From: a virus
Taxonomy: Duplodnaviria > Heunggongvirae > Uroviricota > Caudoviricetes
Virus record (IMG/VR): IMGVR_UViG_646311923_000010
Length of the DNA stretch: 38,756 bases
Direction: 5' to 3' (one strand)
Both the position numbers and the translations under genes were made by a program. Below are positions 11,386 to 38,756 of the stretch, piece after piece. The notes below the pieces were generated by a model. That model was not told where the DNA came from. It searched no databases and saw only the letters and a list, made by a program, of their open reading frames with translations. The stretch's first letter is position 1, and every line of letters starts with the position of its first letter.

Positions 11386-11389
11386 ACCA

Positions 11390-11701: not shown

Positions 11702-11764
11702 CACAACATCAGGGCGAGTTCGCCCTGCTCTCCACCTCAGAACATAAACAAGGAGAACGACATA

Positions 11765-12355: not shown

Positions 12356-12779
12356 TTTTTTTGAACGACTTTTTACCCTTCCGGCCCGCATGGCGGCTGG
12401 ATCCGTCAAGGATCCGTGCGTGCACAAAAAAACGCGTTTTTTCTGCGCGCAGGTGACGGGGGAACAGCCCGCGTTTCAGGGGGGGAATAGCGTTCCCTTA
12501 ACGATGTCGCAGCGACACGACAGAATGGCCGTATTTCTCACGCTGAGCGTGAAAAATACGTGAGGGATTCTGGTTTGATGGGGTGAAAGGTAAGGCCGTC
12601 AAAATCGCACTGAGGCGGCGAGAACATGCAGTCAGCGCAGTGGGATTGCGTAAGAGTCTGACCGTCGATGATGGCAATAAGCAGGAAAGCGTCGTGAAAT
12701 TATCTGACTGATACAGGAGCTGGAGAGTCGGGGCATAAATTTTTTATGCCCCGGCGAAGCAGCAGACAAGCGAAGCGCG

Positions 12780-15577: not shown

Positions 15578-15731
15578 TGCTCCCCCTGAGTAATTACAGG
15601 AAGATTACCCGCGCGCGAAACTGTTCTCCTTAACCCCCTGTTCTGGCCGTTTTCTTACAACAAAAGCCCTTTGTATCAGCCTGTTACGCTTTGCCATCAT
15701 GACTGAAGAACCAGTCAGAGGGGCAAAAACT
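15578..15731. promoter_or_regulatory. Divergent late promoter region between P and O
   Basis: 154-bp intergenic region between divergently transcribed late operons; canonical TGT-N12-ACA activator site not found by eye. Confidence 0.4.
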
Positions 15732-18592: not shown

Positions 18593-19087
18593 ATGAGTAT
18601 GGTTGCCAGAACTGAACCCAGACCCGCAGAGGACGACATCACCGATACCGATGATGGCGATACCCGCATTTCAGCGGGTGCATTCTGGCCGGATATTGTG
18701 CTGCGCGAGCTGCGTCTGGCGGTACGACTGCCGGGCCGCGTGACCACCTCCCGCCTGCTGCATACTGCCACCGGGGCTGTGGCACACGTTACCCGCGAGC
18801 TGGAAGCATGGCAGCAGGAACAGCAGGCAGCTGGCCATCAGACGCTGGCCGATGTTCCGGCACCCGTAATTAACGGAGAAAGCGTCAATCTCTGGCACTG
18901 GCGCAATGCTGTTTATACCGCCACGCGCGCCCTGATTCTGGAGCGTTATCGTGATGCAGACACAACGGACAAGGGCGACCGCCGGGCGGACGCTCTGGAT
19001 ATACAGACATCGGATTTGTGGCGTGATGTGAGCTGGGCCATCTCTGACATTCTGTGCCGCCCGCGAATCTTTGCGGAGTTGTGCTGA
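18593..19087 (+). CDS. L: Head completion/stabilisation protein, P2 gpL family
   Basis: ORF 18584..19087; ATG at 18593 with AGGAG 9 nt upstream; position and size match gpL. Confidence 0.8.
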   Translation: MSMVARTEPRPAEDDITDTDDGDTRISAGAFWPDIVLRELRLAVRLPGRVTTSRLLHTATGAVAHVTRELEAWQQEQQAAGHQTLADVPAPVINGESVNLWHWRNAVYTATRALILERYRDADTTDKGDRRADALDIQTSDLWRDVSWAISDILCRPRIFAELC

Positions 19088-22217: not shown

Positions 22218-22564
22218 CAACCCGCTACACAGGAATGAATCCGGACGGGACGGGAAACCTGAACGATATGGAGCACCTGAAACAGTCAGTCAGGGATATC
22301 CTGACCACCCCGCTGGCAAGCCGGGTTATGCGACGGGAATATGGCAGCCTTGTGCCTGATTTGATTGACGAACCCATGAATAACACCACGCGTCTGCAAT
22401 GCATGAGTGCTGCCGTGATTGCGCTGACACGATGGGAACCCCGCATTGCCCTGGATGCCATCGACGTTGTCTGGAAAGCGGGAGGCCGCGCCGGGGTGAC
22501 GCTGTCGGGCACTGTCATGCAGACCATGCAGAATGTTGAGTTAACCATCACGCTGAGGGAGTAA
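22214..22564 (+). CDS. W: Baseplate wedge protein, P2 gpW (gp25-like)
   Basis: 116-aa ORF; start overlaps V stop; size and position match gpW. Confidence 0.85.
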   Translation: MTTRYTGMNPDGTGNLNDMEHLKQSVRDILTTPLASRVMRREYGSLVPDLIDEPMNNTTRLQCMSAAVIALTRWEPRIALDAIDVVWKAGGRAGVTLSGTVMQTMQNVELTITLRE

Positions 22565-22567
22565 ATC

Positions 22568-23464
22568 ATGCCCGCCGTTGACCTTTCCCAGTTACCGGAA
22601 CCCGCCATCATCGCGGAGCCTGACTTTGAGGCAATTCTGGCTGACACAAAGGCCATGATGATTGCGGCTTATCCCGCCGAACAGCGTGAAGCCGTCTCCG
22701 CCGCGCTGGAGCTGGAATCGGAACCCCTGAACGTTATCGCCCAGACAACAGCGTTTCGTGAAATGCTGTTACGCCAGCGGGTCAATGAGGGGGCACGCGC
22801 CTGCATGTTAAGCCACAGCGCCGGGACAGACCTGGACAACCTCGCGGGCAATATGAACACAAAGCGCCTGACCATCACTCCGGCAACGGATACCACCGAC
22901 GCAGTGATGGAAAGTGACACCTCGCTGAGACTGCGGGCGCAGCGGGCGTACGATGGCCTGAGTGTTGCTGGCCCGTCAGGTGCATACGAGTATTTTGCCC
23001 GCAGCGCCAGCGGTCTGGTGCGTGATGCGCGGGCTATCAGTCCGTCTCCGGCAAATGTGACGGTTTCCATCCTGTCCACTGAGGGCGACGGCACAGCAAC
23101 GGAGGCGTTGCTTAATACCGTTCGCGCCGTTCTGAATGCAGAGGATACCCGCCCGGTGGCCGACCGCCTGACCGTACAGAGCGCCAGAATCGTGACATGG
23201 CGGCTGAATGCAAAACTGTACTTTTACCCCGGTCCGGAATCCGAACCTATTCTGGCTGCGGCGGAATCGTCGTTCAGGAAGTGGCTGGCTGAGCAGGGGC
23301 TTATCGGTCAGGACGTGGCGTTGTCCGCCATTGCTGCCGCACTGCATGTGCACGGTGTGCAACGCGTGGAGATAATCGAACCCACACAGAATATGGCCAT
23401 CAGCGACATACAGGCGGCGCGCTGTGAGTCATTCACCATCAGCGAAGGTGGGCGCAATGAGTAA
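22568..23464 (+). CDS. J: Baseplate protein, P2 gpJ family
   Basis: 298-aa ORF; size and position match gpJ. Confidence 0.85.
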   Translation: MPAVDLSQLPEPAIIAEPDFEAILADTKAMMIAAYPAEQREAVSAALELESEPLNVIAQTTAFREMLLRQRVNEGARACMLSHSAGTDLDNLAGNMNTKRLTITPATDTTDAVMESDTSLRLRAQRAYDGLSVAGPSGAYEYFARSASGLVRDARAISPSPANVTVSILSTEGDGTATEALLNTVRAVLNAEDTRPVADRLTVQSARIVTWRLNAKLYFYPGPESEPILAAAESSFRKWLAEQGLIGQDVALSAIAAALHVHGVQRVEIIEPTQNMAISDIQAARCESFTISEGGRNE

Positions 23465-23987
23465 TTCGTTGTTACCACCATCAGCCAGCAATTTCATGCG
23501 TTGTGCCGAAGCCGTCGGAACACGCATTACAGACATTCCGGTAGACCTCAACACACTGTGGTCGCCGGATACCTGCCCGGTGCATCTGCTGCCCTATCTC
23601 GCCTGGGCATTTTCCGTTGACCGCTGGGATCGCAACTGGCCGGAAGAGACAAAGCGACAGGTTATTCGTGATGCATGGCTGATACACCGACACAAAGGGA
23701 CCATCAGCGCACTGCGCAGGGCCATTGAGCCGCTGGGATACCTCATTCGCGTGTCTGAATGGTGGGAGTTCGGCGGAGAACCGGGAACATTTACCGTTGA
23801 AGTCGGCACACTGGACAGTGGCGTGACGGAGGAAATGTATCTGGAAATGGAGCGGTTGATTGCTGATGCCCGTCCGGTCAGCCGCCACATGACAGGGCTG
23901 AATATCATTCAGGAAATTCCGGGGGATATTTTCGCAGCGGCGGCAACTTATGACGGTGAAGTTATTACCATTTATCCGGACGATTAA
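23457..23987 (+). CDS. I: Baseplate protein, P2 gpI family
   Basis: ORF 23424..23987; ATG at 23457 overlaps J stop; size matches gpI. Confidence 0.85.
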   Translation: MSNSLLPPSASNFMRCAEAVGTRITDIPVDLNTLWSPDTCPVHLLPYLAWAFSVDRWDRNWPEETKRQVIRDAWLIHRHKGTISALRRAIEPLGYLIRVSEWWEFGGEPGTFTVEVGTLDSGVTEEMYLEMERLIADARPVSRHMTGLNIIQEIPGDIFAAAATYDGEVITIYPDD

Positions 23988-23989
23988 GC

Positions 23990-26092
23990 ATGAGTACCAC
24001 AACACGAAAATTTAAAACCGTTATCACCGATACGGGTGCAAAAAAATTAGCTCAGGCAGCCGCGCCAGATGGTAAGCCTGTCCGCCTGACTCATATGGCC
24101 GTGGGCGACGGTGGCGGCACGTTGCCCACACCAGACAGTAAGCAGACCCGTCTGGTGCATGAGGTGTGGCGACACACTGTTAATCGCGTCATCCTGGACG
24201 CAACACATCAGAACCGCATTATTGCGGAGCTGGTTATTCCTCCTGAAGCGGGCGGATTCTGGATCCGGGAAATTGGTGTATTTGATGAGCACGGCGATTT
24301 AATCGCGGTGGGCAATACTGCCGAAAGTTACAAGCCAACCGTTGCCGAGGGGTCCGGACGTGCACAAACATTTCGCACCATTCTGACCGTATCCAGCACT
24401 GCCAGCGTGGCGCTTACCGTGGATAACACCATGGTGATGGCCACAGTGGATTACGTGGATGACAAACTGAAAGAGCATGAACAGTCACGACGTCACCCGG
24501 ATGCCTCGCTGACCGCAAAAGGCTTTGTTCAACTCAGTAGCGCCACTAACAGCGATTCTGAAACGCTGGCCGCAACGCCGAAAGCGGTTAAGGCCGCGTA
24601 TGACCTGGCTAACGGAAAATATACCGCTCAGGACGCCACGACGGCACGAAAAGGGATAGTCCAGCTCAGCAGTGCAACCAACAGCACGTCTGAAACGCTG
24701 GCAGCGACACCAAAAGCGGTTAAGGCGGTAATGGATGAAACGAACAAGAAAGCCCCATTAAACAGCCCGGCACTGACCGGAACGCCAACAACACCAACTG
24801 CACAACAGGGAACGAATAATACCCAAATCGCAAGCACGGCTTTCGTTATGGCCGCGATTGCCGCACTTGTAGACTCTTCACCTGACGCACTGAACACGCT
24901 GAACGAGCTGGCGGCGGCGCTGGGCAACGACCCGAATTTTGCGACCACCATGACTAACGCGCTTGCGGGTAAGCAACCGAAAGATGCCACCCTGACGGCG
25001 CTGGCCGGGCTTGCTACTGCGGCAGACAGGTTTCCGTATTTTACGGGGAATGATGTCGCCAGCCTGGCAACTCTGACAAAAGTAGGGCGGGATATTCTTG
25101 CGAAATCGACCGTTGCCGCCGTTATCGAATACCTCGGTTTACAGGAAACGGTAAATCAGGCTTCTGGCGCATTACAGAAAAACCAGAACGGCGCAGATAT
25201 TCCGGGGAAAGATACCTTCACCAAAAATATTGGTGCCTGCCGCGCATATAGCTCATGGCTGAATATTGGTGGCGATAGTCAGGTCTGGACAACCGCGCAA
25301 TTTATTTCGTGGCTGGAGAGTCAGGGAGCATTTAACCATCCTTACTGGATGTGCAAAGGCTCATGGGCTTATGCAAATAATAAGGTCATTACAGATACAG
25401 GTTGCGGAAATATTTGTCTTGCAGGTGCTGTGGTGGAAGTTATTGGCACTCGCGGCGCAATGACCATACGCGTTACCACGCCGAGCACGTCCAGCGGTGG
25501 CGGAATTACTAACGCTCAATTCACTTATATTAATCATGGTGATGCTTACGCTCCTGGCTGGCGACGAGACTACAACACGAAAAATCAACAACCTGCATTT
25601 GCTTTAGGGCAAACAGGAAGCACTGTCGGAAATGATAAAGCTGTTGGCTGGAACTGGAATAGCGGGGTCTATAACGCAAACATTGGTGGCGCATCGACAT
25701 TAATCCTCCACTTCAATATGAATACGGGGAGCTGCCCTGCTGTACAGTTCCGCGTGAATTACAGGAACGGCGGTATTTTTTATCGTTCAGCGCGTGATGG
25801 TTATGGATTTGAGGCTGACTGGTCAGAGTTTTACACCACGACCCGCAAACCCTCTGCGGGAGATGTTGGTGCATACACGCAGGCAGAATGTAACTCAAGG
25901 TTTATTACAGGTATTCGCCTTGGCGGTCTGTCATCTGTTCAGACATGGAATGGTCCCGGCTGGTCTGACAGGTCAGGTTATGTCGTTACGGGTTCAGTTA
26001 ACGGAAACCGTGATGAATTAATTGATACAACTCAGGCAAGGCCAATTCAGTATTGCATTAATGGGACGTGGTATAACGCGGGGAGTATTTAA
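23990..26092 (+). CDS. H: Tail fibre protein gpH (constant N-terminal part plus currently expressed variable C-terminal part)
   Basis: 700-aa ORF; duplicated LSSATNS(D/T)SETLAATPKAVKA motif typical of P2-type fibres; crossover site lies inside the ORF at 25122-25147. Confidence 0.85.
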   Translation: MSTTTRKFKTVITDTGAKKLAQAAAPDGKPVRLTHMAVGDGGGTLPTPDSKQTRLVHEVWRHTVNRVILDATHQNRIIAELVIPPEAGGFWIREIGVFDEHGDLIAVGNTAESYKPTVAEGSGRAQTFRTILTVSSTASVALTVDNTMVMATVDYVDDKLKEHEQSRRHPDASLTAKGFVQLSSATNSDSETLAATPKAVKAAYDLANGKYTAQDATTARKGIVQLSSATNSTSETLAATPKAVKAVMDETNKKAPLNSPALTGTPTTPTAQQGTNNTQIASTAFVMAAIAALVDSSPDALNTLNELAAALGNDPNFATTMTNALAGKQPKDATLTALAGLATAADRFPYFTGNDVASLATLTKVGRDILAKSTVAAVIEYLGLQETVNQASGALQKNQNGADIPGKDTFTKNIGACRAYSSWLNIGGDSQVWTTAQFISWLESQGAFNHPYWMCKGSWAYANNKVITDTGCGNICLAGAVVEVIGTRGAMTIRVTTPSTSSGGGITNAQFTYINHGDAYAPGWRRDYNTKNQQPAFALGQTGSTVGNDKAVGWNWNSGVYNANIGGASTLILHFNMNTGSCPAVQFRVNYRNGGIFYRSARDGYGFEADWSEFYTTTRKPSAGDVGAYTQAECNSRFITGIRLGGLSSVQTWNGPGWSDRSGYVVTGSVNGNRDELIDTTQARPIQYCINGTWYNAGSI
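25122..25147. other. DNA invertase crossover site (gix/cix-like), left
   Basis: TTATCGAATACCTCGGTTTACAGGAA matches the recalled gix consensus; inverted homology with 28369-28450 extends about 80 bp. Confidence 0.8.
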
Positions 26093-26094
26093 CG

Positions 26095-26628
26095 ATGATG
26101 CACTTAAAAAACATTACTGCTGGCAACCCTAAAACAAAAGAGCAATACCAGCTAACGAAACAATTTAACATCAAATGGCTTTATTCAGAGGATGGAAAAA
26201 ACTGGTATGAGGAACAAAAGAATTTCCAGCCAGACACTTTGAAAATGGTCTATGACCATAACGGCGTTATTATTTGTATTGAAAAGGATGTTTCAGCAAT
26301 TAATCCGGAAGGCGCAAGCGTCGTTGAATTACCTGATATTACAGCAAATCGCCGTGCTGACATTTCGGGTAAATGGATGTTCAAAGATGGCGTAGTGGTA
26401 AAGCGAACTTATACCGAGGAAGAGCAGAGGCAGCAGGCGGAAAATGAAAAGCAAAGCCTGCTACAGCTCGTCAGGGATAAAACCCAGCTATGGGACTCAC
26501 AGCTACGGCTGGGCATCATTTCCGACGAGAATAAACAAAAATTAACAGAGTGGATGCTCTTTGCGCAGAAAGTCGAATCTACAGACACTTCCAGCCTGCC
26601 AGTAACGTTTCCCGAACAACCAGAATGA
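26095..26628 (+). CDS. Tail fibre assembly chaperone (gpG/Tfa)
   Basis: 177-aa ORF immediately after H; N-terminus MMHLKNITAGNPKT and DITANRRAD motif shared with the minus-strand paralogue. Confidence 0.8.
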   Translation: MMHLKNITAGNPKTKEQYQLTKQFNIKWLYSEDGKNWYEEQKNFQPDTLKMVYDHNGVIICIEKDVSAINPEGASVVELPDITANRRADISGKWMFKDGVVVKRTYTEEEQRQQAENEKQSLLQLVRDKTQLWDSQLRLGIISDENKQKLTEWMLFAQKVESTDTSSLPVTFPEQPE

Positions 26629-26631
26629 GAG

Positions 26632-26651
26632 AAGGCCCGATATCGGGCCTT
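26632..26651. terminator. Bidirectional hairpin between convergent tail-fibre assembly genes
   Basis: Perfect 20-bp palindrome AAGGCCCGATATCGGGCCTT flanked by A/T runs. Confidence 0.6.
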
Positions 26652-26656
26652 AATTT

Positions 26657-27184
26657 TTACTCAGGCTTTTGTGGCCATTCGGGCTTTGCCGTATCCACAC
26701 GGCTGACCATAACACTGTAGCGTTCCCATGCTTCCAGTCGGCTACGCTCCTCATCCGTCGCCATATTCAGCCTGACAGCGCGCTCCAGTGGCTGAATAAC
26801 GCTTTCCGCTTCGGAAAGTAACGCGGCCTTTTGTGATTCGGCCTGTTGTTGCTGCTCGTCTGCCGTATAAATCCGTTTAACTACAGCTCCGTCCTTAAAC
26901 ATCCACTTACCGGAATCATCGGCCCGACGATTGGCTGTTATATCGGGGACCTCAACGACGTTAAAACCTTCAGGGTTAAGCGTGGAGGCATCTTTAGTTA
27001 TGGCAACAATAATATTATGTTCATCGTAAACAATCTTTATTGTGTCTTCCTGAAAATTCTTTACCTCTTCATACCAGTTTTTTCCGTCTTCGGACCACAA
27101 CCAGATAACGTCAAAATTCTTTGTTAATTCGTACTGTTTCAGTGTTTTAGCGTTACCCGCTTTAATGTTCTTTAAGTGCATCAT
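26657..27184 (-). CDS. Alternative tail fibre assembly chaperone (Tfa')
   Basis: 175-aa ORF on minus strand, paralogous to 26095..26628. Confidence 0.8.
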
Positions 27185-27185
27185 A

Positions 27186-28424
27186 TTAAACGCTCGCTAC
27201 ATTATACCAGGTGCCATTTATATACTTTTGAACTGGTCTGTAATAAACGCCAGCTATATTATCGGCAGAATTTGACCCTGTATCCTGAACATTTATACCA
27301 GACAATACATGACCTGAAGGGCACTGGAAGCTCCATGTTTGCCAGTTGTTCACACCATAATATTGCTGTGAACCAAGCCGAACATCTTTCACATATCGGG
27401 CATCAATGTTACCCCAGTTGCTTGGTTGTATCTGACCGTTTACAGCAAATGTCACCGAGTTATCTGTATTTCGCTGACTATAGAAATGCCAGCCTGAATC
27501 ATCACCAAGCTCTGCAACAGTTGGTCTTGACGAATTTCCCCACAAGTTAAATGATGCATTACGGGCAGCGGTATTTGCACTTGAAAGTGTGAATAACTTA
27601 CTTTCCCCAGCCTGAATACCCTTTAATGATATTGCTGAACCATTTCTAAAGCGGAATACATGCACACCATTAGCATAAGCATCCAGCACCCCATCACCAT
27701 TTTGTTTAAACCCGGTATCGTTATCTCCTAAAACTATTGAATTGCTACCCAGGGCATTAGCCGTTCCAATCCCCAGATTTCCGCTAAAAATGGCATTAAT
27801 ACCGAATATTGAGTGAGAACAATAAAACCCTCGCCCATTGTTAAAATCAAGAATAGCTTGTGCGTTCGTGCTTTCTGTCGCGGGATTAGTTGCTCCCCAC
27901 TTATATGTTGTTTGACCGACGGTATAATCCTGAGTTGGAACAATAACCGTTAGCCCTTCTTCAGCAGAAACCCGCACAGGAAAAGCCCTGCCTTCAACGT
28001 AAAAAACGCTGCATACATCATCTTCTTTAAGGCTTGTTACAATGGAATGGATTGCGCGCTCATTAGTCTGATACGTCGAAAAATAACCTGCCGCATATGA
28101 ACCACGATCAGTCCAGCCACCAGGCATTACCATTCCATTGAATTCGCAGTTATTCATTTCGTAATTACCACCGGCAGATGTGGTCGTTATAATCACTCTG
28201 GAAGCCAGCTCGCCAGTGCTGCCTGTGGAACGCCGGAAAATAACTGGATACCACTTTCCACCAACTGCATTAGACGGCGCATTAAATGCGTACTGCTGCA
28301 TTCCTTTTTTCTTATCCACCTCGCCTTTGCTGTAAACATTAATGTTACTCAGGAAGCGATCCTTATCAGGAATATCTGCGCCGTTCTGGTTTTTCTGTAA
28401 TGCGCCAGAAGCCTGATTTACCGT
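27186..28424 (-). CDS. Alternative tail-fibre variable C-terminal segment (Hv'), promoterless and startless in this orientation
   Basis: Open frame continues upstream of the track ORF (27186..28319) to the crossover site; first ~25 codons after the site are identical to those in H ([24 protein letters not shown]). Confidence 0.7.
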
Positions 28425-28450
28425 TTCCTGTAAACCGAGGTTTTAGATAA
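28425..28450. other. DNA invertase crossover site (gix/cix-like), right
   Basis: TTCCTGTAAACCGAGGTTTTAGATAA, reverse complement of the left site with 3 mismatches. Confidence 0.8.
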
Positions 28451-28504
28451 TGGCCGTTTCCGGCCTGCATGGCATGATTTGCGCTTTTGGACGGGAGATT
28501 CAGT

Positions 28505-29104
28505 GTGCTGATTGGTTATGTAAGGGTATCAACAAATGACCAGAATACAGACCTGCAACGAAACGCTCTTGTTTGTGCAGGATGTGAACAAATATTTGAA
28601 GATAAATTAAGCGGGACAAAGACAGACCGACCGGGATTAAAACGCGCTTTAAAGCGGCTTCAAAAAGGTGACACGCTGGTTGTCTGGAAACTGGATCGCC
28701 TCGGGCGAAGCATGAAACATCTGATTTCTCTCGTCGGGGAACTACGGGAGCGAGGGATTAATTTTCGCAGTCTGACCGACAGCATAGATACATCTTCTCC
28801 AATGGGGCGTTTTTTCTTCCACGTTATGGGTGCCCTGGCTGAAATGGAACGTGAATTAATTGTTGAACGTACACTGGCCGGACTGGCGGCAGCGCGCGCA
28901 CGGGGGCGCACAGGCGGACGTCGCCCGAAGCTGACAAAAGAACAGCATGAGCAAATAGCTAGGCTGATCAAAAACGGTCATGACAGGAAACAACTGGCGA
29001 TCATTTACGACATCGGCATATCGACAATTTATCGTTATCACCCTGTGGGCGATATACAGGCTGAAGAAACAACCAGGCAGACTCAGGAAAATGAAAACCG
29101 CTAA
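28505..29104 (+). CDS. Serine recombinase DNA invertase (Gin/Pin/Cin/Hin family)
   Basis: ORF 28487..29104; GTG at 28505 gives MLIGYVRVSTNDQNTDLQRNAL, the classic invertase N-terminus with catalytic Ser; C-terminal HTH. Confidence 0.9.
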   Translation: MLIGYVRVSTNDQNTDLQRNALVCAGCEQIFEDKLSGTKTDRPGLKRALKRLQKGDTLVVWKLDRLGRSMKHLISLVGELRERGINFRSLTDSIDTSSPMGRFFFHVMGALAEMERELIVERTLAGLAAARARGRTGGRRPKLTKEQHEQIARLIKNGHDRKQLAIIYDIGISTIYRYHPVGDIQAEETTRQTQENENR

Positions 29105-29123
29105 TCTGACCATTAGCGGTTTT
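29094..29123. terminator. Bidirectional terminator hairpin between convergent invertase and U genes
   Basis: AAAACCGCTAAT-ctgacc-ATTAGCGGTTTT perfect 12-bp inverted repeat. Confidence 0.6.
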
Positions 29124-29130
29124 GCGTTAA

Positions 29131-29625
29131 TCAAAACAGCCCTTTAACGGAGCTGGCCGCGCTGTTAAGGGATGATGTGACCTTATCTTTGAAGCCGGAC
29201 AGCATATCACTGAACGATGAGGATTGCAGGCGCTCCCGCAAATCCTCATCACAGCGTTCAAGGGTCAGTGAAAATTCTATCTTTTTCGCCTTACCGTAGC
29301 GATCAAACTCGGAACGGGTCGTATTCGTTCCGGTCAGGACATACATGCCGTAAATCTGCCCGACGCCATCAATCAAAGGCCAGGGTCGTCCTGTATACGC
29401 CTGCGTGGTCAGCAGCGACAGCGACACTTCGCCACCTGTAATTTCAGGATAAAGCACACCAGAAAGAACGATGCGATCATCACCTGCACCGATATACTGC
29501 CAGCTTGCTGAACGGTTAACGCGTTCATTTTTCACATGCCGCCAGCTTTTGTTTTGCTGTAACTGCTGATGCGGCAGCGTGCGCAGCTCAAAAACAAACA
29601 TGCCGTAGATCATCATCATGGCCAT
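29131..29625 (-). CDS. U: Tail protein, P2 gpU family
   Basis: 164-aa ORF; FVFELRT...SGVLYPEITGG...KIEFSLTL aligns with recalled gpU; alternative start 29619. Confidence 0.85.
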   Translation of the reverse strand: MAMMMIYGMFVFELRTLPHQQLQQNKSWRHVKNERVNRSASWQYIGAGDDRIVLSGVLYPEITGGEVSLSLLTTQAYTGRPWPLIDGVGQIYGMYVLTGTNTTRSEFDRYGKAKKIEFSLTLERCDEDLRERLQSSSFSDMLSGFKDKVTSSLNSAASSVKGLF

Positions 29626-29631
29626 GACTCC

Positions 29632-32475
29632 TCAATCTTTATCGTAAAAACTGCCACGCCCAGCACGGGCGCGCCGTTCCATTTCTGCCCTGACCATTTC
29701 ACCGACCAGTTTCGCCAGTTCGCGGGGATTCTGCGTAACAACGTTATGCAGATGAACATGAATTTCACCGCCAAATCCTGAGGCAACAGGTTCCCGGTTA
29801 CGCGAAGGTGTTGGGGCTGATGCCACTGGCGATCGTATGGCCTCCGCCACCGGGCGGGAGCTGGCCGCAACAACAGGGACCAGCGCCGGAGGCAGCGGGG
29901 CCGGAACCACAGGCGTGATATTAATTGCGGGGGCAGGCTTACTGACCTGCGCAATCTTCCGCTCCTGCCACTCCCCACGAACGGCAAGTGCGCGGGGCAG
30001 GTTCTTAAAGACAATATCGCCGGGGCCAATGCGTTTTTTCGTCTCATCAACCAGCTTACCTGTGTTATCAGCAATCTTGCTGAGTCTGCGTAGCGTACCG
30101 GTATTGCTGTCTGTGAGCGGTTTGTTGTCTTTGGGTTTATCACCTCCGGTGCCATTGCCATTTTCCACAGGCTTCGGCGGATTGATTTTCGCCAGGTCAC
30201 CCTGAAGCAAGGCAACCTTGTCCTGAAGAATGGCCGCACGCTGTGCGTCTTCGATTTTCTTTCTCGCCCTTTCCGCTTCATCCGGAAGCACACCGAGTTT
30301 TTCAAGTATCCACGCCAGCGTATCCAGCAACATTTTTGCTGGCGTCAGAACAAGCTGTAACGCGCCACCAAGAACGTTGCCGAATACCTCGCCAGCACTG
30401 GTGCATTTATCCAGCGTTTCCTTGCTGGACTCCATCGGTGACAACAGCGATTTAAACCAGTTAAACACCTGGCTGATCCCGCTTCCGATTGCGTCAAAAA
30501 CAGGACCAAACCGTTCAAAGGTTTCGCGCAACGGGGTCAGCCTTTCCATAATTCCGCTGAACACCCCGGCAAAAAATGCCCTGATGGGATCCCAGTATTT
30601 CCAGATAAGAATGGCAGCTCCGGCAAGCGCAGCCACGATAAGACCAACCGGACTGAACAGCGCCCCGATAGCACCTCCCAGCAAAGAAACGGAACCCGTC
30701 ACCATTCCCCATAGTGCTGGCAGGAGCCTGACAGCATTCATTGATCCGGTCAGGAGGGAAAAACCAAGACGCAGTTTTGCCAGCGGACCAGCAAGCACAC
30801 CAAGAGCAAGCGACAACGAGCCTACGGTTGCAGTCACTGCCAGCAGCGCACCGCCTGCAATCAGTAGCTGGCGCGTCAGTACAGGATGGGCCTGCGCCAG
30901 TACCGTCACCTTTGAGACCACCCGTGTTAGCCACTGCGTGACAGAACGCAGCGGACCGTCAACCAGATCACTGATGCGAATACGAAGACCTTCCCATGCG
31001 CTGTCGAGATTTTTCAGGTCGCCATCAAGGTTGTCGGCCATAACCTTTGCCGTGCGTTCAGCCTCACCGCGTGCGCCCTCAAGTTCTTTTCTCAGTTTGG
31101 GTAAGGAACCGTCACCCGCCGCATCAACGAGTGCCATAAACGATGTGAAAGCCTCTTCCCCGGCGATGTCCTTAAAGAAGGATACCCGGTCAACTTCCCC
31201 GTATTTGCGGGTGGCTTTATAAAGGTCAGCCAGCAGATCTTCCATCGGGCGCATTTTGCCCCCGGCATCCGAAACGGACACGCCCAGCTCTTTCAGAGCT
31301 TCTGCCGCCGCCTTTGGCGGTGATGCCAGACGAGCCAGGCTGGCACGCATTGCCGTCCCGGCATCACTCCCTCTGATGCCCATATTCGCCAGCACGCCCG
31401 CCATCGCTGCGGCCTGCTCCAGCGATATTCCCAGCTTACCCGCCACCGGACCTGCATATTTCATGGTTTCGCCCAGTGCGCGAAGGTCAGTGTTGGTACG
31501 GGTAAACGCTGCGGTGAGTGTGTCACCGACCCGGTCCATCTGGTCAGCAGAAAGGCCGAACTGCGTCAGGATATTTGAGCCAATATCTGCCGTCTCGCCG
31601 AGATCCATACCGCCAGCCGTTGCCATGCTCAGCACGCCGGGAAGCGCAGCCTGAATGGCCTGCGGAGTGAAGCCAGCCATTGCAAGAAATGCCTGTCCAC
31701 TGGCGGCATCGCCTGCGGTGAACTGCGTTTCAGAGCCAAGTTTTAACGCCTGCTCACGCAGCGCCTTAAACTGCGGGCTGTTCTGGTCGATTCGCGTCAG
31801 TGCCTGAACGCGGGACATCTCTTTGCCGAACCCGATCGCAGGCTGCAAAAAACGCCCGGCAGCATAGCCGCCCGCCGCTGCCGCACCAATTGCCAGTGCA
31901 CCACCTGTTTTCAGTTTTCCCGCTGTTTCCTGCGCGCGCGAATACCGCTCACGCGCCCGCGTTACACGCGCAAGCGCCTGCCGTTCGCGTTCAAGCTGGT
32001 TGTTGTACTGTTCGGTGCGTCTGATGGCCTGCTGGATGGTGTTATCGCTGCCTGTCAGGGAAATGCCGTGGCGTTTCAGCTCTCCGCCAAGCTCCCGCAT
32101 TTTCTGAATTTCCCGCGTGCGCGATTCATTCAGGCGTTCAAGCCGGGTGCTTAACTGCTGCATCAGCTTTTGTTGTTTTTCGCTGAGCACTGTACCCGTG
32201 CGTTGTAACTGATTAAGGGCGTTAAGCTGGCGTCGTGCTTTCACGATACCCGCATCCGCTTTACTGACAGCGTCGCGGGCGCGCTCAAATGAACGCGCCT
32301 GACGCTCGAGATTTTTGATCGCCCCCTGCGTTCGCTGGATGGAGTCACCAAACTGCCCCATCAGGCGGCGGGCGTTTTCGGCAGGCCGGGTCAGCCTGTC
32401 AACGGCGCTGAAAGCGACCCGGATATCAAGAGTCTTCATTGTCTGCATTCCCGCTGCGAAGTGCCGCCCGCTCAC
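29632..32475 (-). CDS. T: Tail tape measure protein, P2 gpT family
   Basis: 947-aa ORF; long coiled-coil N-terminal half, Gly/Ala-rich hydrophobic middle; track start is GTG at 32475, alternative ATGs at 32448 and 32439. Confidence 0.85.
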   Translation of the reverse strand: MSGRHFAAGMQTMKTLDIRVAFSAVDRLTRPAENARRLMGQFGDSIQRTQGAIKNLERQARSFERARDAVSKADAGIVKARRQLNALNQLQRTGTVLSEKQQKLMQQLSTRLERLNESRTREIQKMRELGGELKRHGISLTGSDNTIQQAIRRTEQYNNQLERERQALARVTRARERYSRAQETAGKLKTGGALAIGAAAAGGYAAGRFLQPAIGFGKEMSRVQALTRIDQNSPQFKALREQALKLGSETQFTAGDAASGQAFLAMAGFTPQAIQAALPGVLSMATAGGMDLGETADIGSNILTQFGLSADQMDRVGDTLTAAFTRTNTDLRALGETMKYAGPVAGKLGISLEQAAAMAGVLANMGIRGSDAGTAMRASLARLASPPKAAAEALKELGVSVSDAGGKMRPMEDLLADLYKATRKYGEVDRVSFFKDIAGEEAFTSFMALVDAAGDGSLPKLRKELEGARGEAERTAKVMADNLDGDLKNLDSAWEGLRIRISDLVDGPLRSVTQWLTRVVSKVTVLAQAHPVLTRQLLIAGGALLAVTATVGSLSLALGVLAGPLAKLRLGFSLLTGSMNAVRLLPALWGMVTGSVSLLGGAIGALFSPVGLIVAALAGAAILIWKYWDPIRAFFAGVFSGIMERLTPLRETFERFGPVFDAIGSGISQVFNWFKSLLSPMESSKETLDKCTSAGEVFGNVLGGALQLVLTPAKMLLDTLAWILEKLGVLPDEAERARKKIEDAQRAAILQDKVALLQGDLAKINPPKPVENGNGTGGDKPKDNKPLTDSNTGTLRRLSKIADNTGKLVDETKKRIGPGDIVFKNLPRALAVRGEWQERKIAQVSKPAPAINITPVVPAPLPPALVPVVAASSRPVAEAIRSPVASAPTPSRNREPVASGFGGEIHVHLHNVVTQNPRELAKLVGEMVRAEMERRARAGRGSFYDKD

Positions 32476-32589
32476 GCCAGCTAACCACTTCGCCGGGCGT
32501 CATCATGAAGATTTCGGCGGGCGACCAGTTAAAAATAACGGCAATATCTGCCACAAAGTCTTCTATGTGCTCAAAGCACACAACCGTGA

Positions 32590-32955
32590 TCAGGCTTCCG
32601 TCGCCTGTTCGTTCTTCCCGCCAGAGTCCGCACCGCTCAAAAAATTTACGGCAACCACACATAACTGAATAAAGTCACGGGATGCCATTTTTTTGATCGT
32701 CACTTCATCCAGTCGCGGTGATGTCACGCGTGACAGCAGCGTAAACATGGATTCCGCTTTCAGATTCAGCACATCAGACAGCGACAAATCTCGCAGAGAT
32801 CCAGCCTGCTCAATAGCCCCGGTGATCTCCACATACGTGATTTTTTCGCCGCCTCGCTCAATTGGTTGGGTAAGTTTTACGCCACGCTCACTGGTTTCTT
32901 TCACAGTGTCAGCAACTACCGTGTTTTCGGTATCGATGTTTTTCGTCTCTTTCAT
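32590..32955 (-). CDS. E: Tail assembly chaperone gpE, with programmed -1 frameshift product E+E' extending to 32426
   Basis: 121-aa ORF; slippery TTTTTTG (plus-strand A-run 32639-32644) near its 3' end; overlapping -1 frame stays open to 32426 and overlaps T start. Confidence 0.7.
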   Translation of the reverse strand: MKETKNIDTENTVVADTVKETSERGVKLTQPIERGGEKITYVEITGAIEQAGSLRDLSLSDVLNLKAESMFTLLSRVTSPRLDEVTIKKMASRDFIQLCVVAVNFLSGADSGGKNEQATEA

Positions 32956-33009
32956 CAGGAAACTCCTTTCAGTCAGAGGCGACGCACTGCGCCGCCTGCA
33001 TATTACTTA

Positions 33010-33522
33010 TCAGCCAAGCCCAAGCGCGGAACGGATGCGATCGGGCACAATGTCCTTGCCGTCCTTCCGGTAAATGAAGTTCAGCAGGTCAATCTCCCAC
33101 AACGGACGATCGTTAACACTCAGCTTGTAGTAGGTGTTTTTAATGGCGTAAGTGTGTGATGTGGCTTCGCCCTGTTTGGCTTCCCCCATATCAATTTCCG
33201 TCACGCGTCCGCGCATTTCGACTTCATACAGGTCGCTTTCTGCATCGGTGTAGTATTCACCCGCAAAACGCAGTAGCGTGCCGTCAATCGTGCCGCCATA
33301 CTTAAGGAACAGCTCACGAACTGCGCCCCCCATGACAAAGCTCGCATCAAGCGCGGAGTCGTCCAGACCGAGATCAATACTTACCGCACCCATCATGCCG
33401 CCCCCCCGGTAGCTGTCGGTTTTGCGCGTCAGCTTAGGCAGAGTGACGGACGTCACCTTACCCACTTCGTTTTCACCATCCACAAACAGCGTAAAAAAGC
33501 GAAGATGTTTTGGCACAGCCAT
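33010..33522 (-). CDS. FII: Tail tube protein, P2 gpFII family
   Basis: 170-aa ORF directly downstream of FI on the same strand; size matches gpFII. Confidence 0.88.
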   Translation of the reverse strand: MAVPKHLRFFTLFVDGENEVGKVTSVTLPKLTRKTDSYRGGGMMGAVSIDLGLDDSALDASFVMGGAVRELFLKYGGTIDGTLLRFAGEYYTDAESDLYEVEMRGRVTEIDMGEAKQGEATSHTYAIKNTYYKLSVNDRPLWEIDLLNFIYRKDGKDIVPDRIRSALGLG

Positions 33523-34706
33523 CAGGCACCTCCCAAAACCGCAAATGCGGGTTCAAAGTATTCATCAGTAAACGTCTGGTAAAGCTCCATGTCTTCCAGT
33601 GGCGGAACGGGCGTATATTTGTAGCGAATACGCACACGCCCCTGACGTAAATCCGTGGTGCTGTTATCCACCACGTCATACCAGCACTCCGCGCCAATCA
33701 GTTTCCCGGCAGTAACCAGTGAATCCAGTTTTGCCCTGATGGCACTGATAACATCCTTCACGTTCGCAGGCGTCAGTGGACTGTCGATGGTTTCAAACTG
33801 CGCATCCGCAATTGAATCAGCCAGCACCTGTGCGGTTCGGGTATACACCTCAAAGATGTAGGCGTTCGTTTCCGGTGTGCGGTTGCCCCAGAAGCGGAAC
33901 CCGTTGCGACGAATAATGGTCGTGATTTCTTTGTTGTTGAGGCTGTTGGCATCACTGTCTTCGGCCTGCAACGACCAGAACACATGCCTGGACATCCCCA
34001 GCACATTTTTAACCGGAACGTTGGACAGCGATTTGTGCCAGCCCTGCTCATGGTCAATGTACGCACGAAGGCCGCACGCATAGGCAGGCGCGGGGAACGT
34101 TTCGTTTTTGCCACTTTTCGGGTTGTAGGCGATGAAGTCCGGCCATAAGAGCATCACCTCACGTTCGTTGAATTTCTGGCGGTAGGTAATCGCCTCAGCC
34201 ATCGTGTTACAGCCGTGACATGAGGCATACACAAACGCGCGCAGTTTACCCGCAATCACGCACAGGGATTTTGTTACCGCCTCCGTGTCCAGCTCCGGCG
34301 CGGCCAGAATACGCGGACGGTATCCGATGGTTTCATCCTGCTCTGCAACAAGCAGCGCATACATCCCCGTATAGCTGCCGTCAGATTCAGAACCACCGAT
34401 AACCAGTTGATCCTGCGTTTTTCCGTCTTCTTCTTTGTGTTCAGCCACGCGAACGACGATCACCTTTGTGCTCACCTGGTCTGCGATAGCCTTAAGCGCA
34501 CGATAAAGCGTCCCCGTTGTTCCGCATTTTCCCAGCACGTCATTGACGCGGGTCAGCAGTGTGGGCTTGTTCAGCGGGAACAGCTCCGCATCCGCATCAT
34601 CCGCCGTTGCCACGATACCGATAACACTGGAATCAACATCATTAATCGCTGTTACCAGGTCGGTACTTTCCGTAACACGGGCACCATGAAAACGAGTTTC
34701 ACTCAT
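33522..34706 (-). CDS. FI: Contractile tail sheath protein, P2 gpFI family
   Basis: 394-aa ORF; size and downstream gene order match gpFI. Confidence 0.9.
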   Translation of the reverse strand: MSETRFHGARVTESTDLVTAINDVDSSVIGIVATADDADAELFPLNKPTLLTRVNDVLGKCGTTGTLYRALKAIADQVSTKVIVVRVAEHKEEDGKTQDQLVIGGSESDGSYTGMYALLVAEQDETIGYRPRILAAPELDTEAVTKSLCVIAGKLRAFVYASCHGCNTMAEAITYRQKFNEREVMLLWPDFIAYNPKSGKNETFPAPAYACGLRAYIDHEQGWHKSLSNVPVKNVLGMSRHVFWSLQAEDSDANSLNNKEITTIIRRNGFRFWGNRTPETNAYIFEVYTRTAQVLADSIADAQFETIDSPLTPANVKDVISAIRAKLDSLVTAGKLIGAECWYDVVDNSTTDLRQGRVRIRYKYTPVPPLEDMELYQTFTDEYFEPAFAVLGGA

Positions 34707-34862
34707 AGCTTCAGCCCCTTGTATCCGTTAAATGATTCGGCAACAATCATCACCCACCACGCGCGTAATCTCACCCCTGCGCCGTTCTCCCGCCACGGCG
34801 ACAACAAAAAGCAGTAACCCCCTCCGCACGCACATGCGACCATGCCACACAGGGAGGGAAAG
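34707..34862. promoter_or_regulatory. Intergenic region between divergent FI and D; presumed late promoter(s) and one inversion junction
   Basis: 156 bp between divergently oriented FI and D starts; in canonical P2 D follows U on the same strand. Confidence 0.35.
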
Positions 34863-35972
34863 ATGATCGACACCACCATGCAATTGCTCAGTCAGAGCAC
34901 AGACCCCGTGAAAATGCCGGATTTTGATATTCTCGCGGAGGGGGAAACGCTGTCCGGCGTGGCAGAGCGCCTGATGAGTCTGTCACTGACCGACAACCGG
35001 GGATTTGAAGCGGACCAGCTCACCATCACGCTGGATGATGCGGATGGTCAGTTGCAGCTACCGCCACGGGGCGCGCGCCTGACGGTTCTCATTGGCTGGA
35101 AAGGAGAACCGCTGACAGAAAAAGGCACTTACATTGTTGATGAAATCGCTCACGAAGGACCGCCGGACAGGCTGACTGTTTCAGCCAGAAGCGCAGATTT
35201 TCGGGATGAATTTAACGTTAAACGTGAGGTGTCCTGGCATGATGTGACCGTTGAACGTGTGGTATCCGCCATCGCTCATCGGTATGGTCTGAAACCGCAA
35301 ATCAGCGAAATGCTGATGGATATCGAAATCGACCACGCCGACCAGACCGAAGAAAGCGACATGTCCTTCCTTACGCGCATGGCGGAAATGCTGGGCGCAA
35401 TCACCACGGTAAAAAGCGGCAATCTGTTATTCATCATGCCAGGCGGTGGCGTGAACGCACAGGGCCAGCCGTTGCCCTCGTTCGCCATTACACGCAGCAG
35501 CGGCGATCGCCATCAGTTCCGCATTGCTGACCGCGAGGCGTATACGGGGGTACGCGCCTACTGGCTTGATCTTAATTACGGGAAAAAGAAAAAAGTCAGC
35601 GTGAAACGCCGTAAACCGCCAAAACCCAAAAAGGAGAAAAGCAGCAGCCGTGAAGGTGATTATATGGAAGGCGCGGAAGGCAATGTGTTTGTGTTACGCA
35701 AGACTTATCAGAACGAGCAGGCAGCAAGACGCGCAGCGGCGGCAAAGTGGCAGCAGCTACAACGCGGAGCCGCATCATTCTCCATCACGCTGGCACGTGG
35801 TCGTGCAGAACTCTACCCCGAAATGCATGGCACGGTAACAGGATTCAAAAGCGACATTGATAAACAGAACTGGATTATAGCCAAGGCGGAACACACCATC
35901 GATGGAAGCGCGTTTACCTCGCAGCTTGAGCTTGAAGCAAAAATCCCGGAATGGATAGCAGAAACAGAGTGA
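34863..35972 (+). CDS. D: Tail protein, P2 gpD family
   Basis: ORF 34842..35972; ATG at 34863 preceded by AGGGAGGG; size and position before ogr match gpD. Confidence 0.85.
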   Translation: MIDTTMQLLSQSTDPVKMPDFDILAEGETLSGVAERLMSLSLTDNRGFEADQLTITLDDADGQLQLPPRGARLTVLIGWKGEPLTEKGTYIVDEIAHEGPPDRLTVSARSADFRDEFNVKREVSWHDVTVERVVSAIAHRYGLKPQISEMLMDIEIDHADQTEESDMSFLTRMAEMLGAITTVKSGNLLFIMPGGGVNAQGQPLPSFAITRSSGDRHQFRIADREAYTGVRAYWLDLNYGKKKKVSVKRRKPPKPKKEKSSSREGDYMEGAEGNVFVLRKTYQNEQAARRAAAAKWQQLQRGAASFSITLARGRAELYPEMHGTVTGFKSDIDKQNWIIAKAEHTIDGSAFTSQLELEAKIPEWIAETE

Positions 35973-36323
35973 GCAACTTGGATGCATTAGCTCAGACCAA
36001 AGCTGGCACGCTTACGACGCAGAACCAAACTTAATCTGACAGTCCGCTTTGTACCAGAAGCAGACATTAATAACATTATTTGCAATAACCAATTGATATT
36101 GTTTTTATTGCGTGTTATTAAAGCATATCCGCTTGTGATCATTACCAACTACTCGTCTATTTTTATTTGTGAGCAAAATCAGATTTTAGGTAGAAACATT
36201 TTGTGAAAAAAAATAGCGAAATTTTTTGTAGGAAGTAAGTCAAGCAGATATAGCAGCAGATCGGAAGTTATTGGTCATGCGTTATTTACTCTAAGCAAAA
36301 AAACTTAGTACAGGAAAAAATAA

Positions 36324-37907
36324 ATGGCAAGTAAAGCTAACCTTGTTAATTTGGATGCGATGATTTCAAGAGAGGATTTCTCTGCTCAATCCGATAATGA
36401 TTTATCTTTCGAATCTATACAAAATATAGCTATGAGAGATATCGAAATGTTGTCTGGCCTACTCAGAAAACCAGATTTTCAGAGAGAAACAAATCACTGG
36501 ACTCCAGAGCAAGTAGTTTCATTACTAAAGAGTTTTGTCACAGGTGATTTAATACCATCCGTGATTTTATGGAAGAGTTCTTTTCTGTTTGTTATAGACG
36601 GTGGTCATAGACTTAGTGTTTTAAGAGCATGGAAAGAAAATGACTATGGTGATGGCACTATATCGCAAAAATTCTTTGGAAATAGTATTTCCGGAGAGCA
36701 AAGAAAGATCGCACAAAAAACAAGAGAATTGGTTGACTCCACAGTTGGTAAATGGTCTGAGATAGAAAGAAAAATGCAGGATTCTAATAATGACCATGAT
36801 GAGAGTAGAAGGCTTACAAATATTTACGTAAGGGCTTTGCAAGTCCAGTGGGTTAAAGGTGATTCCGATAAGGCAGAAACGTCTTTTTTCAATATAAATA
36901 AAAAAGGTACTCCTTTAGATGAGGTTGAGGAAACTTTACTTAGGCATAGGAAGAAACCTATATCTATCGCTGCGAGAGCAATAATACGTGCAGGAAAAGG
37001 ACATAGATACTGGTCCTCTTTCCCTGAGGATAAGACTAAAAAGATAGAAGAGCTTTCCTCAAATATAAACTCCTCTCTTTTCGATCCAGACGTTAAATCT
37101 CAAATTAAAACACTTGATCTACCTCTGGGTGGCTCACGCGGTGTGAGGTTAGCTCTTGATATCTTAATAGATCTTATGTCTATTTCCGTGTCCCAAAACG
37201 AAAATTATCAAAAAGAATTGCTTAATCAAATCGAAGATTCAGATGGAAGCGAAACTGTTGTTGTTCTGGAAAAAACCGCAAAATTACTAAATTGGATTAC
37301 TGGAAATGACAAGGGCAGCTTAGGATTACATCCGGCCGTGTATTTTTATAGTGCATCAGGCAGACATGTGAATCCTATGTTTTTAGGGACGACTCTGTTT
37401 ATAGCGAAAAAATTAAAATTTAATGATAAGAACTTCTTCAAAAAATTCACAAGTATTAGGTTTAATTTAGAGAAAACTCTAATAAACAATAAGTCTATGC
37501 TAGCATCGTTAGTGAACAGAGCAGGACATAAGAAAAGAACTGAGTATTACTCTAATTTATTTGAGTCAATGATTGATTTCCTTCTTGAGGTAAAAAAGAA
37601 AGACAAAAGCATGAGTGATTTCAGCCTTACAGAAAGTGAAATACTCCAGCTTGCTCACTTTGAAGGTAATATCCTATCTGGGACAAGTATCAGCAATGCA
37701 ACTAAAATTAGTGAGGAAGCGAAGAATGCTGTATTCATTGATACTGCATTAGCTTCAGCAATTACATGTCCTATCTGCCAGGGATATTTAGATCCTTCAA
37801 AATCTGTCTCATATGATCACATCAAAAGAGTTGCAGATGGTGGTAAAGGTTTGGCAAAAAATACTCAGTTAACTCACCCGTATTGCAATATGTCTGTCAA
37901 AAATTAG
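36324..37907 (+). CDS. DUF262 (ParB-like, DGxHR motif) + C-terminal HNH nuclease protein; GmrSD/BrxU-like candidate defence nuclease
   Basis: 527-aa AT-rich ORF; N-terminal PDFQRETNHWTPEQV...FVIDGGHRLSVL matches the DUF262 signature; C-terminal CPICQGY...YDHIKRVADGGKG...NTQLTHPYCN is HNH/His-Me-finger-like; flanked by AT-rich non-coding DNA. Confidence 0.7.
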   Translation: MASKANLVNLDAMISREDFSAQSDNDLSFESIQNIAMRDIEMLSGLLRKPDFQRETNHWTPEQVVSLLKSFVTGDLIPSVILWKSSFLFVIDGGHRLSVLRAWKENDYGDGTISQKFFGNSISGEQRKIAQKTRELVDSTVGKWSEIERKMQDSNNDHDESRRLTNIYVRALQVQWVKGDSDKAETSFFNINKKGTPLDEVEETLLRHRKKPISIAARAIIRAGKGHRYWSSFPEDKTKKIEELSSNINSSLFDPDVKSQIKTLDLPLGGSRGVRLALDILIDLMSISVSQNENYQKELLNQIEDSDGSETVVVLEKTAKLLNWITGNDKGSLGLHPAVYFYSASGRHVNPMFLGTTLFIAKKLKFNDKNFFKKFTSIRFNLEKTLINNKSMLASLVNRAGHKKRTEYYSNLFESMIDFLLEVKKKDKSMSDFSLTESEILQLAHFEGNILSGTSISNATKISEEAKNAVFIDTALASAITCPICQGYLDPSKSVSYDHIKRVADGGKGLAKNTQLTHPYCNMSVKN

Positions 37908-37937
37908 CAATGAGTTAACAATTTTATATCAGATAAC

Positions 37938-37963
37938 AGCCTTCTATAATTGAAGGCTTTTCG
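37938..37963 (+). terminator. Rho-independent terminator downstream of the DUF262-HNH gene
   Basis: AGCCTTC-tataatt-GAAGGCT hairpin followed by TTTCG. Confidence 0.6.
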
Positions 37964-38164
37964 TATGATGCTTTCTTCAATAGAAATGTTGAGTATGATG
38001 GAAGATCTCTAATAGTGAATGGTTCGGTTAGGCCAGATACCTACCACTCTACACAAAACTTTGTGTCCGATCCTCGCTCACAGCAGTCGCTCCCAAGGGT
38101 TTCAGTTGGAGTCTGAGCTAGTACAACTTAGAATAGCGGCAGCACCACGTTAAGGGAGGTCGCT

Positions 38165-38425
38165 ATGTTCCGTTGTCCGCTTTGTGGCGCATCTGCCCGT
38201 ATCCGCACCAGTCGTCCGGAAAATGATTCAAACACCGTGCGGCAAAAGTATTACCAGTGTAACAATCTGGAATGCGGCGTATGCTTCTCAACACTGGAAG
38301 CTTTCCATAAATTCACATCAAAACACGCCTCCGGCGTTCACTCTTCAGAAGGTATCCCGTGGCATGAGCTGCCAGCTTCACACAGGGGAAACAATCAGAT
38401 GAGCTTGCCTTTACCTCAGAATTAA
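38165..38425 (+). CDS. ogr: Late transcription activator, Ogr/Delta zinc-finger family
   Basis: 86-aa ORF; MFRCPLCG...CNNLEC four-cysteine arrangement aligns with recalled P2 Ogr; AGGGAGG RBS. Confidence 0.85.
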   Translation: MFRCPLCGASARIRTSRPENDSNTVRQKYYQCNNLECGVCFSTLEAFHKFTSKHASGVHSSEGIPWHELPASHRGNNQMSLPLPQN

Positions 38426-38615: not shown

Positions 38616-38756
38616 ATGTCGCAAAAATCGCTTACGGCCATCACGTTCTGCGTGACGGCAATCCTCATCATCTGGATGTTGCACGGTTCGCTGTGCGAAA
38701 TACGGATGAGCTTCTGGGGAGCGGAGTTTGCGGCGTTCTTACAGTGTAAGCAGTAA
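38616..38756 (+). CDS. hok: Hok/Gef-family type I toxin peptide
   Basis: 46-aa ORF MSQKSLTAITFCVTAILIIWMLHGSLCEIRMSFWGAEFAAFLQCKQ; N-terminal TM helix and conserved SLCEIR motif; an overlapping upstream frame (38486..38749) is mok-like. Confidence 0.7.
   Translation: MSQKSLTAITFCVTAILIIWMLHGSLCEIRMSFWGAEFAAFLQCKQ

Follow-up and report, generated by a model that had tools for sequence, protein, structure and literature searches.

Why does the tail module of a P2-like prophage, from the sheath gene to gene U, lie on the strand opposite to gene D and the other late operons? The question is raised by a window of 38,756 nucleotides (the whole stretch of viral DNA that was analysed, IMG/VR record IMGVR_UViG_646311923_000010), and we are highly confident of an answer in three parts. 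The inverted order is the fixed order of a sub-clade of P2-like phages, for which it would be ancestral; the spacer between the inverted genes and D would serve as a late promoter in both directions; and the layout would go back to an old inversion.

The prophage and its inverted tail genes

The window is derived from a prophage of Escherichia coli O145 RM9872 that is integrated beside btuC, and its positions 28400 to 36000 match NZ_CP028379.1 at 100%. RefSeq annotates all of the P2-type morphogenetic genes in this region (Q, P, O, N, M, L, X, lysis, R, S, V, W, J, I, H, G, FI, FII, E, T, U, D and ogr). For the tail genes and Ogr, our Pfam assignments agree with RefSeq in both identity and strand. 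The prophage is apparently an ordinary, intact-looking member of the P88-like group. A register shift of 1 bp separates the window from the RefSeq record somewhere to the left of about 12.7 kb, with no bearing on the tail block. The genes concerned are the following.

28505 to 29104 (Pfam match given for 28487 to 29104), plus strand: serine DNA invertase of the Gin/Cin/Hin type (Pfam Resolvase, 1.3e-50, and HTH_7; RefSeq "recombinase family protein")
29131 to 29619 (Pfam match given for 29131 to 29625), minus strand: gpU tail protein, at the end of the leftward tail operon (Pfam Phage_P2_GpU, 1.5e-38; 100% identical to U of P88)
29632 to 32439 (Pfam match given for 29632 to 32475), minus strand: gpT tape measure protein (Pfam PhageMin_Tail, 7.2e-58; RefSeq)
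32590 to 32955 and 32426 to 32581, minus strand: tail assembly chaperone pair, gpE with the E' extension ORF (annotated in RefSeq as "tail protein" and "GpE family phage tail protein"; matched by tblastn to the E region of P2)
33010 to 33522, minus strand: gpFII tail tube (Pfam Phage_tube, 7.5e-47)
33522 to 34706, minus strand: gpFI tail sheath, at the head of the leftward operon (Pfam sheath domains; 98% identical to FI of P88)
34863 to 35972 (Pfam match given for 34842 to 35972), plus strand: gpD baseplate hub / late control D, intact (Pfam Phage_GPD; 95-97% identity over the full length to D of P88 and P884B11)
38165 to 38425, plus strand: Ogr/Delta zinc-finger late activator of 86 aa, presumed ligand of the box between FI and D (Pfam Ogr_Delta, 5.1e-14; 42% identical to P2 Ogr)

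The orientation described in the original prediction, which was made from the sequence of this window, is borne out by both Pfam and RefSeq: U-T-E'-E-FII-FI occupies 29131 to 34706 on the minus strand, and D and the other late operons are on the plus strand. The best start of D is also the predicted one, the ATG at 34863, with GGGAGGG upstream. The comparison with P2 on which that prediction was built is valid, because FI-FII-E-T-U-D of P2 is co-stranded with H-G, and U (22312 to 22791) and D (22791 to 23954) share one base in the P2 record. The genes of the P2 F operon (P_F: FI FII E E' T U D) and their internal order are identical here, with proteins that are only 32-47% identical to those of this phage. 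The difference lies in the arrangement: the P2 operon extends to D and runs collinear with V-W-J-I-H-G, whereas here FI to U is inverted and D forms a separate divergent unit. The prediction further held that D has lost its upstream operon context. This is correct in that D stands alone and divergent, but D sits behind what appears to be a late promoter of its own.

The inverted order is the normal order of a phage group

Megablast aligned the region from the invertase through U to FI and into D with phage P88 as a single colinear piece, at 96.4% identity over 7.6 kb. The same colinear piece was found in Citrobacter phage phiSM, Xuanwuvirus P884B11, phage 500465-2 and others, whose gene maps have the same strands. 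P88 (Xuanwuvirus P88) and phiSM share 94-97% nucleotide identity with the window across the invertase, U to FI (minus) and D (plus), including the same 156-bp spacer between FI and D with the same box; the variable parts of their tail fibres are unlike those here. At the protein level, identity to the P88 counterparts is 95-100% over the full length for U, T, E, FII, FI, D and Ogr.

The arrangement is also widespread in host genomes: 1343 of 5426 complete E. coli genomes, about a quarter, carry at least 80% of positions 28400 to 36000 in one place. As a query for the opposite arrangement we used a synthetic P2-like junction, in which the 3' half of U is joined directly to the 5' half of D. The two halves were joined in none of the 1419 E. 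coli genomes that contain both.

When tblastn matches of gpD and FI were cross-tabulated over 50,697 phage records, the sheath gene was adjacent to D on the opposite strand, head to head, in all 47 cross-tabulated records, each with a gpD of 62% identity or more; CP052639.1, which was also listed, is absent from the sheath list and thus lies outside the 47. The group with the inverted order includes Xuanwuvirus, Enterobacter phage phiT5282H, Serratia phage KSP20, the Klebsiella phages 3LV2017 and ST16-OXA48phi5.4 with their kin, and Salmonella SEN4/5, and the 47 records are of phages of Escherichia, Citrobacter, Enterobacter, Serratia, Klebsiella and Salmonella. Gene maps of individual loci, made by tblastn, confirmed the order in six lineages. 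The collinear order was found in records whose gpD is about 50% identical, namely P2 and the Fels-2-like phage 500465-1.

Several of these relatives are functional phages. P88, which is temperate, gives plaques and has a burst size near 65 (PMC5285337); SEN4/5 form plaques and myovirus particles (PMC5261728); and phiSM is a functional, infective temperate phage (PMC6456863). All of them carry this exact arrangement as their normal state, an observation that the original prediction had itself named as one that would refute it. Infectivity is known for these relatives, and the RM9872 prophage is known here from its sequence.

A mis-joined or mis-oriented contig in this genome had been among the proposed explanations, and the only point in its favour is the difference from P2 itself. 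The identical arrangement recurs in the 1343 complete genomes, which were produced in many laboratories, and in phage genomes that were sequenced independently, and U and D are found at 100% identity in several separate O145 assemblies. An assembly artefact is excluded because of this recurrence, and we put its probability at practically nil. A lineage-specific arrangement is the sole survivor of the four options that had been offered. This order is genuine, widespread and invariant; it does not depend on the invertase and is compatible with the formation of infective particles. P88-like phages and related enterobacterial Peduoviridae have it as their fixed order, and it is neither an artefact, nor a recent rearrangement, nor driven by the invertase; the inverted block as such is not an anomaly. 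In the papers that we found on P88, Xuanwuvirus, SEN4/5 and inverted P2-like tail order, the inverted gene order is not discussed.

The invertase acts on its own tail-fibre segment

An invertase gene abuts one end of the block, and the two repeats on which this enzyme acts are the following.

25118 to 25219: left inverted repeat of the invertible (Mu G-like) tail-fibre segment, 102 nt, 91% complementary to 28353 to 28454, with the gix-like site TTATCGAATACCTCGGTTTACAGGAA at 25122 to 25147
28353 to 28454: right-hand copy of the inverted repeat, containing a gix-like site at 28425 to 28450

Sites were scored against the Mu gixL and hix reference sequences; by this measure TTATCGAATACCTCGGTTTACAGGAA matches Mu gixL at 24 of 26 positions, and the scores at the true invertase sites are 24-26 of 26. 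Between the repeats, positions 25220 to 28352 (3133 bp) are the reverse complement of the corresponding part of NZ_CP028379.1, from the same strain, with a single mismatch; compared in the same orientation, the two differ at 2244 positions. The 3.1-kb tail-fibre segment demonstrably flips, and the substrate of the invertase is its own pair of 102-nt repeats, at 25118 and 28353. The counterpart of the Mu G, P1 C and Salmonella Hin systems is present here as a Gin-type invertase with 102-nt repeats; it exchanges alternative C-termini of the tail fibre together with assembly proteins, and both orientations have been observed. This segment is 25220 to 28352; the FI to U block, in contrast, lacks flanking repeats and gix-like sites and is never found flipped.

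We regard it as very improbable that FI to U is or was flipped by the neighbouring Gin/Cin-type invertase at secondary sites, be it as a second invertible segment or as a recent accident of this strain. The proposal draws on the position of the invertase gene, on a weak half-site resemblance, TTAATCAAAAC at 29127 (17 of 26 to the gix sequence), and on a 9-bp inverted match near both ends of the block. However, the best gix-like matches at the two junctions score only 17 and 15 of 26, so that 26-bp gix/cix/hix-like crossover sites are absent from the two ends; a score of 15 is reached about 140 times in the window, and the two matches are out of register for crossover. Among the 1419 E. coli genomes the block was found in one orientation only, whereas a segment flipped by the enzyme should occur in both among close relatives. 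Most lineages with the inverted order have no invertase at all: this holds for the prophage of E. coli 55989, in which an acetyltransferase occupies the invertase position, for SEN4/5, for phiT5282H and for the Klebsiella phages, and in SEN5 and phiT5282H a fibre-assembly gene faces U directly. Conversely, phage 500465-1 has an invertase and keeps the P2 gene order. An invertase-mediated origin, as had been suggested, is not supported because of these four observations together: the order in relatives without the enzyme, the uniform orientation, the lack of gix-like sites at the junctions and the P2 order of 500465-1.

A single copy of the 9-bp match itself, TCCGTTAAA, is present, at 34724, and a single copy of its complement, at 29143. 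The first copy lies in the predicted 5' leader of FI and the second inside the coding sequence of U, off the junction, which also speaks against a flip at that point. Inverted pairs of at least 10 nt number 124 between 28300 and 35100, and many are longer. The match was thus at chance level, as the original prediction had allowed, and we rejected it as a junction signature. The same search for inverted pairs revealed no long inverted repeat bracketing FI to U.

One junction was said to abut the 3' end of the invertase gene and a terminator. The gene end and a hairpin are confirmed at this position, and the terminator function is a likely one judged from the fold.

29094 to 29123: hairpin with a 12-bp stem between the convergent invertase and U genes, overlapping the invertase stop codon; likely two-way terminator

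The hairpin folds with an energy of -16.9 kcal/mol on one strand and -15.6 kcal/mol on the other (z about -4.1), and none of 200 shuffled sequences folded as well. These values fit a terminator that would probably serve both convergent genes.

A predicted bidirectional late promoter between FI and D

Our analysis of the 156-bp spacer, 34707 to 34862, suggests how D could remain a late gene, and the following elements are proposed.

34784 to 34805: predicted Ogr-type activator box GTTCT-N12-ACAAC, common to two divergent promoters (core TCT-N12-ACA at 34786 to 34803, centre at 34794.5)
34746 to 34751, minus strand: predicted -10 GATGAT of the leftward late promoter P_FI (putative start about 34739, leader about 33 nt)
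34838 to 34843, plus strand: predicted -10 GACCAT, after TGc, of the rightward promoter P_D (putative start about 34850)
15640 to 15661: second copy of the box GTTCT-N12-ACAAC, in the terminase/scaffold (P-O) spacer, the counterpart of the shared pP/pO activator site of P2

Late promoters of P2 have a TGT-N12-ACA consensus and depend on Ogr (PMC3931495). The P2 record has a single annotated activator-binding site for pO and pP, with the mapped starts 55.5 nt to each side, and the start of P_F is 57.5 nt from its box. A box of the TGT-N12-ACA type about 57 nt upstream of the start and an activator of the Ogr type are common to the P2 F operon and this phage, and the box between FI and D resembles the annotated P2 activator sites. 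A known precedent is the pP/pO pair, in which one site lies midway between two divergent late promoters. The spacer between FI and D shares this geometry, and in its box type it agrees with this phage's own P-O spacer. The two systems differ in that pP/pO controls packaging and head genes from mapped starts, whereas the FI-D spacer would control the tail genes FI to U and D from predicted promoters.

Exact matches to GTTST-N12-ACAAC occur in the 38.7-kb window only at 15640 and 34784. A strict search for TGT-N12-ACA gave 3 matches in the window against 9.3 expected by chance, with none in a late spacer; the local box is missed by this search because one of its arms is TCT, and it becomes visible through alignment across genera. 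The deviation from the consensus, C for G, is found in E. coli, Enterobacter and one Klebsiella lineage. Each of the nine relatives that we compared has exactly one T[GC]T-N12-ACA box in its FI-D spacer, 81.5-88.5 nt from the FI ATG. Between the P-O and FI-D spacers, only the short matches ACAACAAAA and TAACCCCCT are shared, and ACAACAAAA is the right arm of the box. A P_V-type box was not located upstream of V, and one-mismatch matches lie only elsewhere in the window.

Apart from a few elements, the spacer shows little conservation across six genera. We anchored 12 arms on the box, from the six genera and in both directions, and found G, A, A and T conserved at columns 33, 36, 39 and 40, while the rest of the spacer has diverged. 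These positions form an extended -10-like element (G, then xAxxAT) that lies 44-49 nt from the box centre at mirror positions on both sides; on the P_FI side, A2, A5 and T6 of the hexamer are conserved at the same offset in all six genera. The hexamers are weak -10 elements (3-4 of 6 positions), and the predicted D leader is only about 12-13 nt. No sigma-70 consensus promoter was found between 28300 and 36400, as expected for activator-dependent promoters. The spacer thus combines a TGT-N12-ACA-type dyad at about 55 nt, one arm position of which is off consensus, with a weak -10 and no good -35, and the phage encodes an activator of the Ogr/Delta family. We infer that it is a bidirectional, Ogr-dependent late promoter, a reading that relies on sequence and on the analogy with P2. 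Our literature search found no paper that describes or maps a promoter in this spacer.

It could instead be supposed that the order is typical of the lineage and that D is driven from elsewhere, by an independent constitutive or early promoter or from a start farther upstream such as TAATCT at 34766 to 34771. The weak -10 and short leader on the D side would fit such a promoter, and GTAATCT at 34765 resembles the context of the predicted pP -10 in the P-O spacer. Against this, the TGn and xAxxAT of the D side stay at one distance from the box across six genera amid diverging surroundings, TAATCT is not conserved outside the E. coli group, and D is a structural tail gene that is required late together with FI to U. 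Transcription of D from such a source is improbable in our view.

We favour expression of both units from the Ogr box. The dyad-symmetric box at 34784 to 34805 lies midway in the spacer, with a -10-like hexamer 44-49 nt to either side, and Ogr bound at this single site would start transcription of FI to U leftwards at about 34739 and of D rightwards at about 34850. The predicted sharing of one Ogr site would explain why D has stayed a late gene outside the F operon.

Origin and meaning of the inverted order

We propose that FI-FII-E-E'-T-U in this orientation is the fixed ancestral order of an enterobacterial sub-clade of P2-like phages (Peduoviridae), whose members would include Xuanwuvirus/P88, Novemvirus, Reginaelenavirus, Reipivirus, Senquatrovirus and Serratia phage KSP20. 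One old inversion of the P_F promoter together with FI to U may have brought the palindromic activator site of P_F into a head-to-head position with D, after which a weak -10 alone could have been enough for D to regain late expression. A simple inversion of this kind in an ancestor resembling 500465-1 would yield exactly the present layout. The direction of the rearrangement and the number of events are inferred here from the distribution of the two orders. We lean towards the more specific view that a single ancient inversion of P_F and FI to U created a second bidirectional late promoter, similar to pP/pO, which now defines a multi-genus clade of enterobacterial Peduoviridae. If this is true, the locus would illustrate how an activator site with dyad symmetry allows an operon to be split and inverted while its parts stay co-regulated.

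Our result is mainly a negative one: the tail module is neither rearranged nor mis-assembled nor crippled, and the invertase behaves as usual. Its only mildly new element is the predicted P_FI/P_D bidirectional late promoter, which is modelled on the P2 precedent. Those who annotate P88-like prophages against P2 should expect the inverted order, in view of its presence in about one complete E. coli genome in four.

Of additional note, the surroundings of ogr vary among these phages. In P88 and in the 55989 prophage ogr directly follows D, whereas here a low-GC gene of the GmrSD type (36324 to 37907) intervenes between them; PADLOC gave only marginal matches for this cargo gene.

Orientation of the tail-fibre segment

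Sequence comparison of the window with the RefSeq assembly of the same strain, RM9872 (NZ_CP028379.1), shows that the Mu G-like tail-fibre segment is flipped between the two:

25220-28352: carries alternative C-termini for the fibre, plus two assembly genes

The reverse complement of the segment matches NZ_CP028379.1 with 1 mismatch in 3133 bases. Since the segment therefore lies in opposite orientations in two assemblies of one strain, the serine DNA invertase is active now or was so in the recent past.

Annotation of gpD and of related phages

The gpD reading frame is unbroken from 34863 to 35972 and is full length when compared with D of P88 and P884B11. The RefSeq/PGAP annotation gives a shortened CDS (35172-35972) named "VgrG/Pvc8 family" and, alongside it, a tiny pseudogene on the opposite strand; the same pattern recurs in E. 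coli 55989. The RefSeq/PGAP call looks like an annotation artefact.

The product names in the GenBank record of Citrobacter phage Shae_phiSM (OR565851.1) are apparently off by one gene: the name "late control gene D protein" stands on the sheath, and "ogr/Delta-like zinc finger" stands on gpD. The phiSM virions were described in 2019 as having non-contractile tails and were placed in the Siphoviridae (PMC6456863), whereas the genome codes for a sheath and a tube with 97% identity to their counterparts in the myovirus P88. P88 itself (KP063541.1) has an unannotated Ogr homologue at 12636-12893, directly 3' of D and 99% identical to that of the window.

Further Ogr-type boxes

Two more boxes, both GTTAT-N12-ACAAC, fit the Ogr-type motif with one mismatch:

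18945-18966: within gene L
11686-11707: where the partition gene ends

In P2, P_V lies upstream of V, whereas a search for an Ogr-type box upstream of V in the window found no clear one.

Accessory and partition genes

D is followed directly by ogr in P88, as it is in the prophage of E. coli 55989, but in the window an insert separates the two:

36324-37907, plus strand: gene for a 527-aa protein with a GmrSD_N (DUF262) domain

The insert has 35% GC, with low-GC flanks at about 36000-38100, and PADLOC returned only marginal matches for the gene, which is probably anti-phage cargo at a variable spot. The following genes at the prophage ends are probably accessory cargo:

1174-2212, minus strand: two small genes (DUF1640 protein and hypothetical protein) between the integrase and btuC
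38616-38756, plus strand: hok/gef toxin gene at the right end, 3' of ogr

Downstream of the replication gene lie a small partition protein gene and the following gene:

10426-11700, plus strand: ParM actin-like segregation protein (Pfam StbA_N, E 1e-82; ParM C-terminal domain, E 6e-69)

These genes suggest that the prophage could undergo plasmid-like maintenance or segregation.
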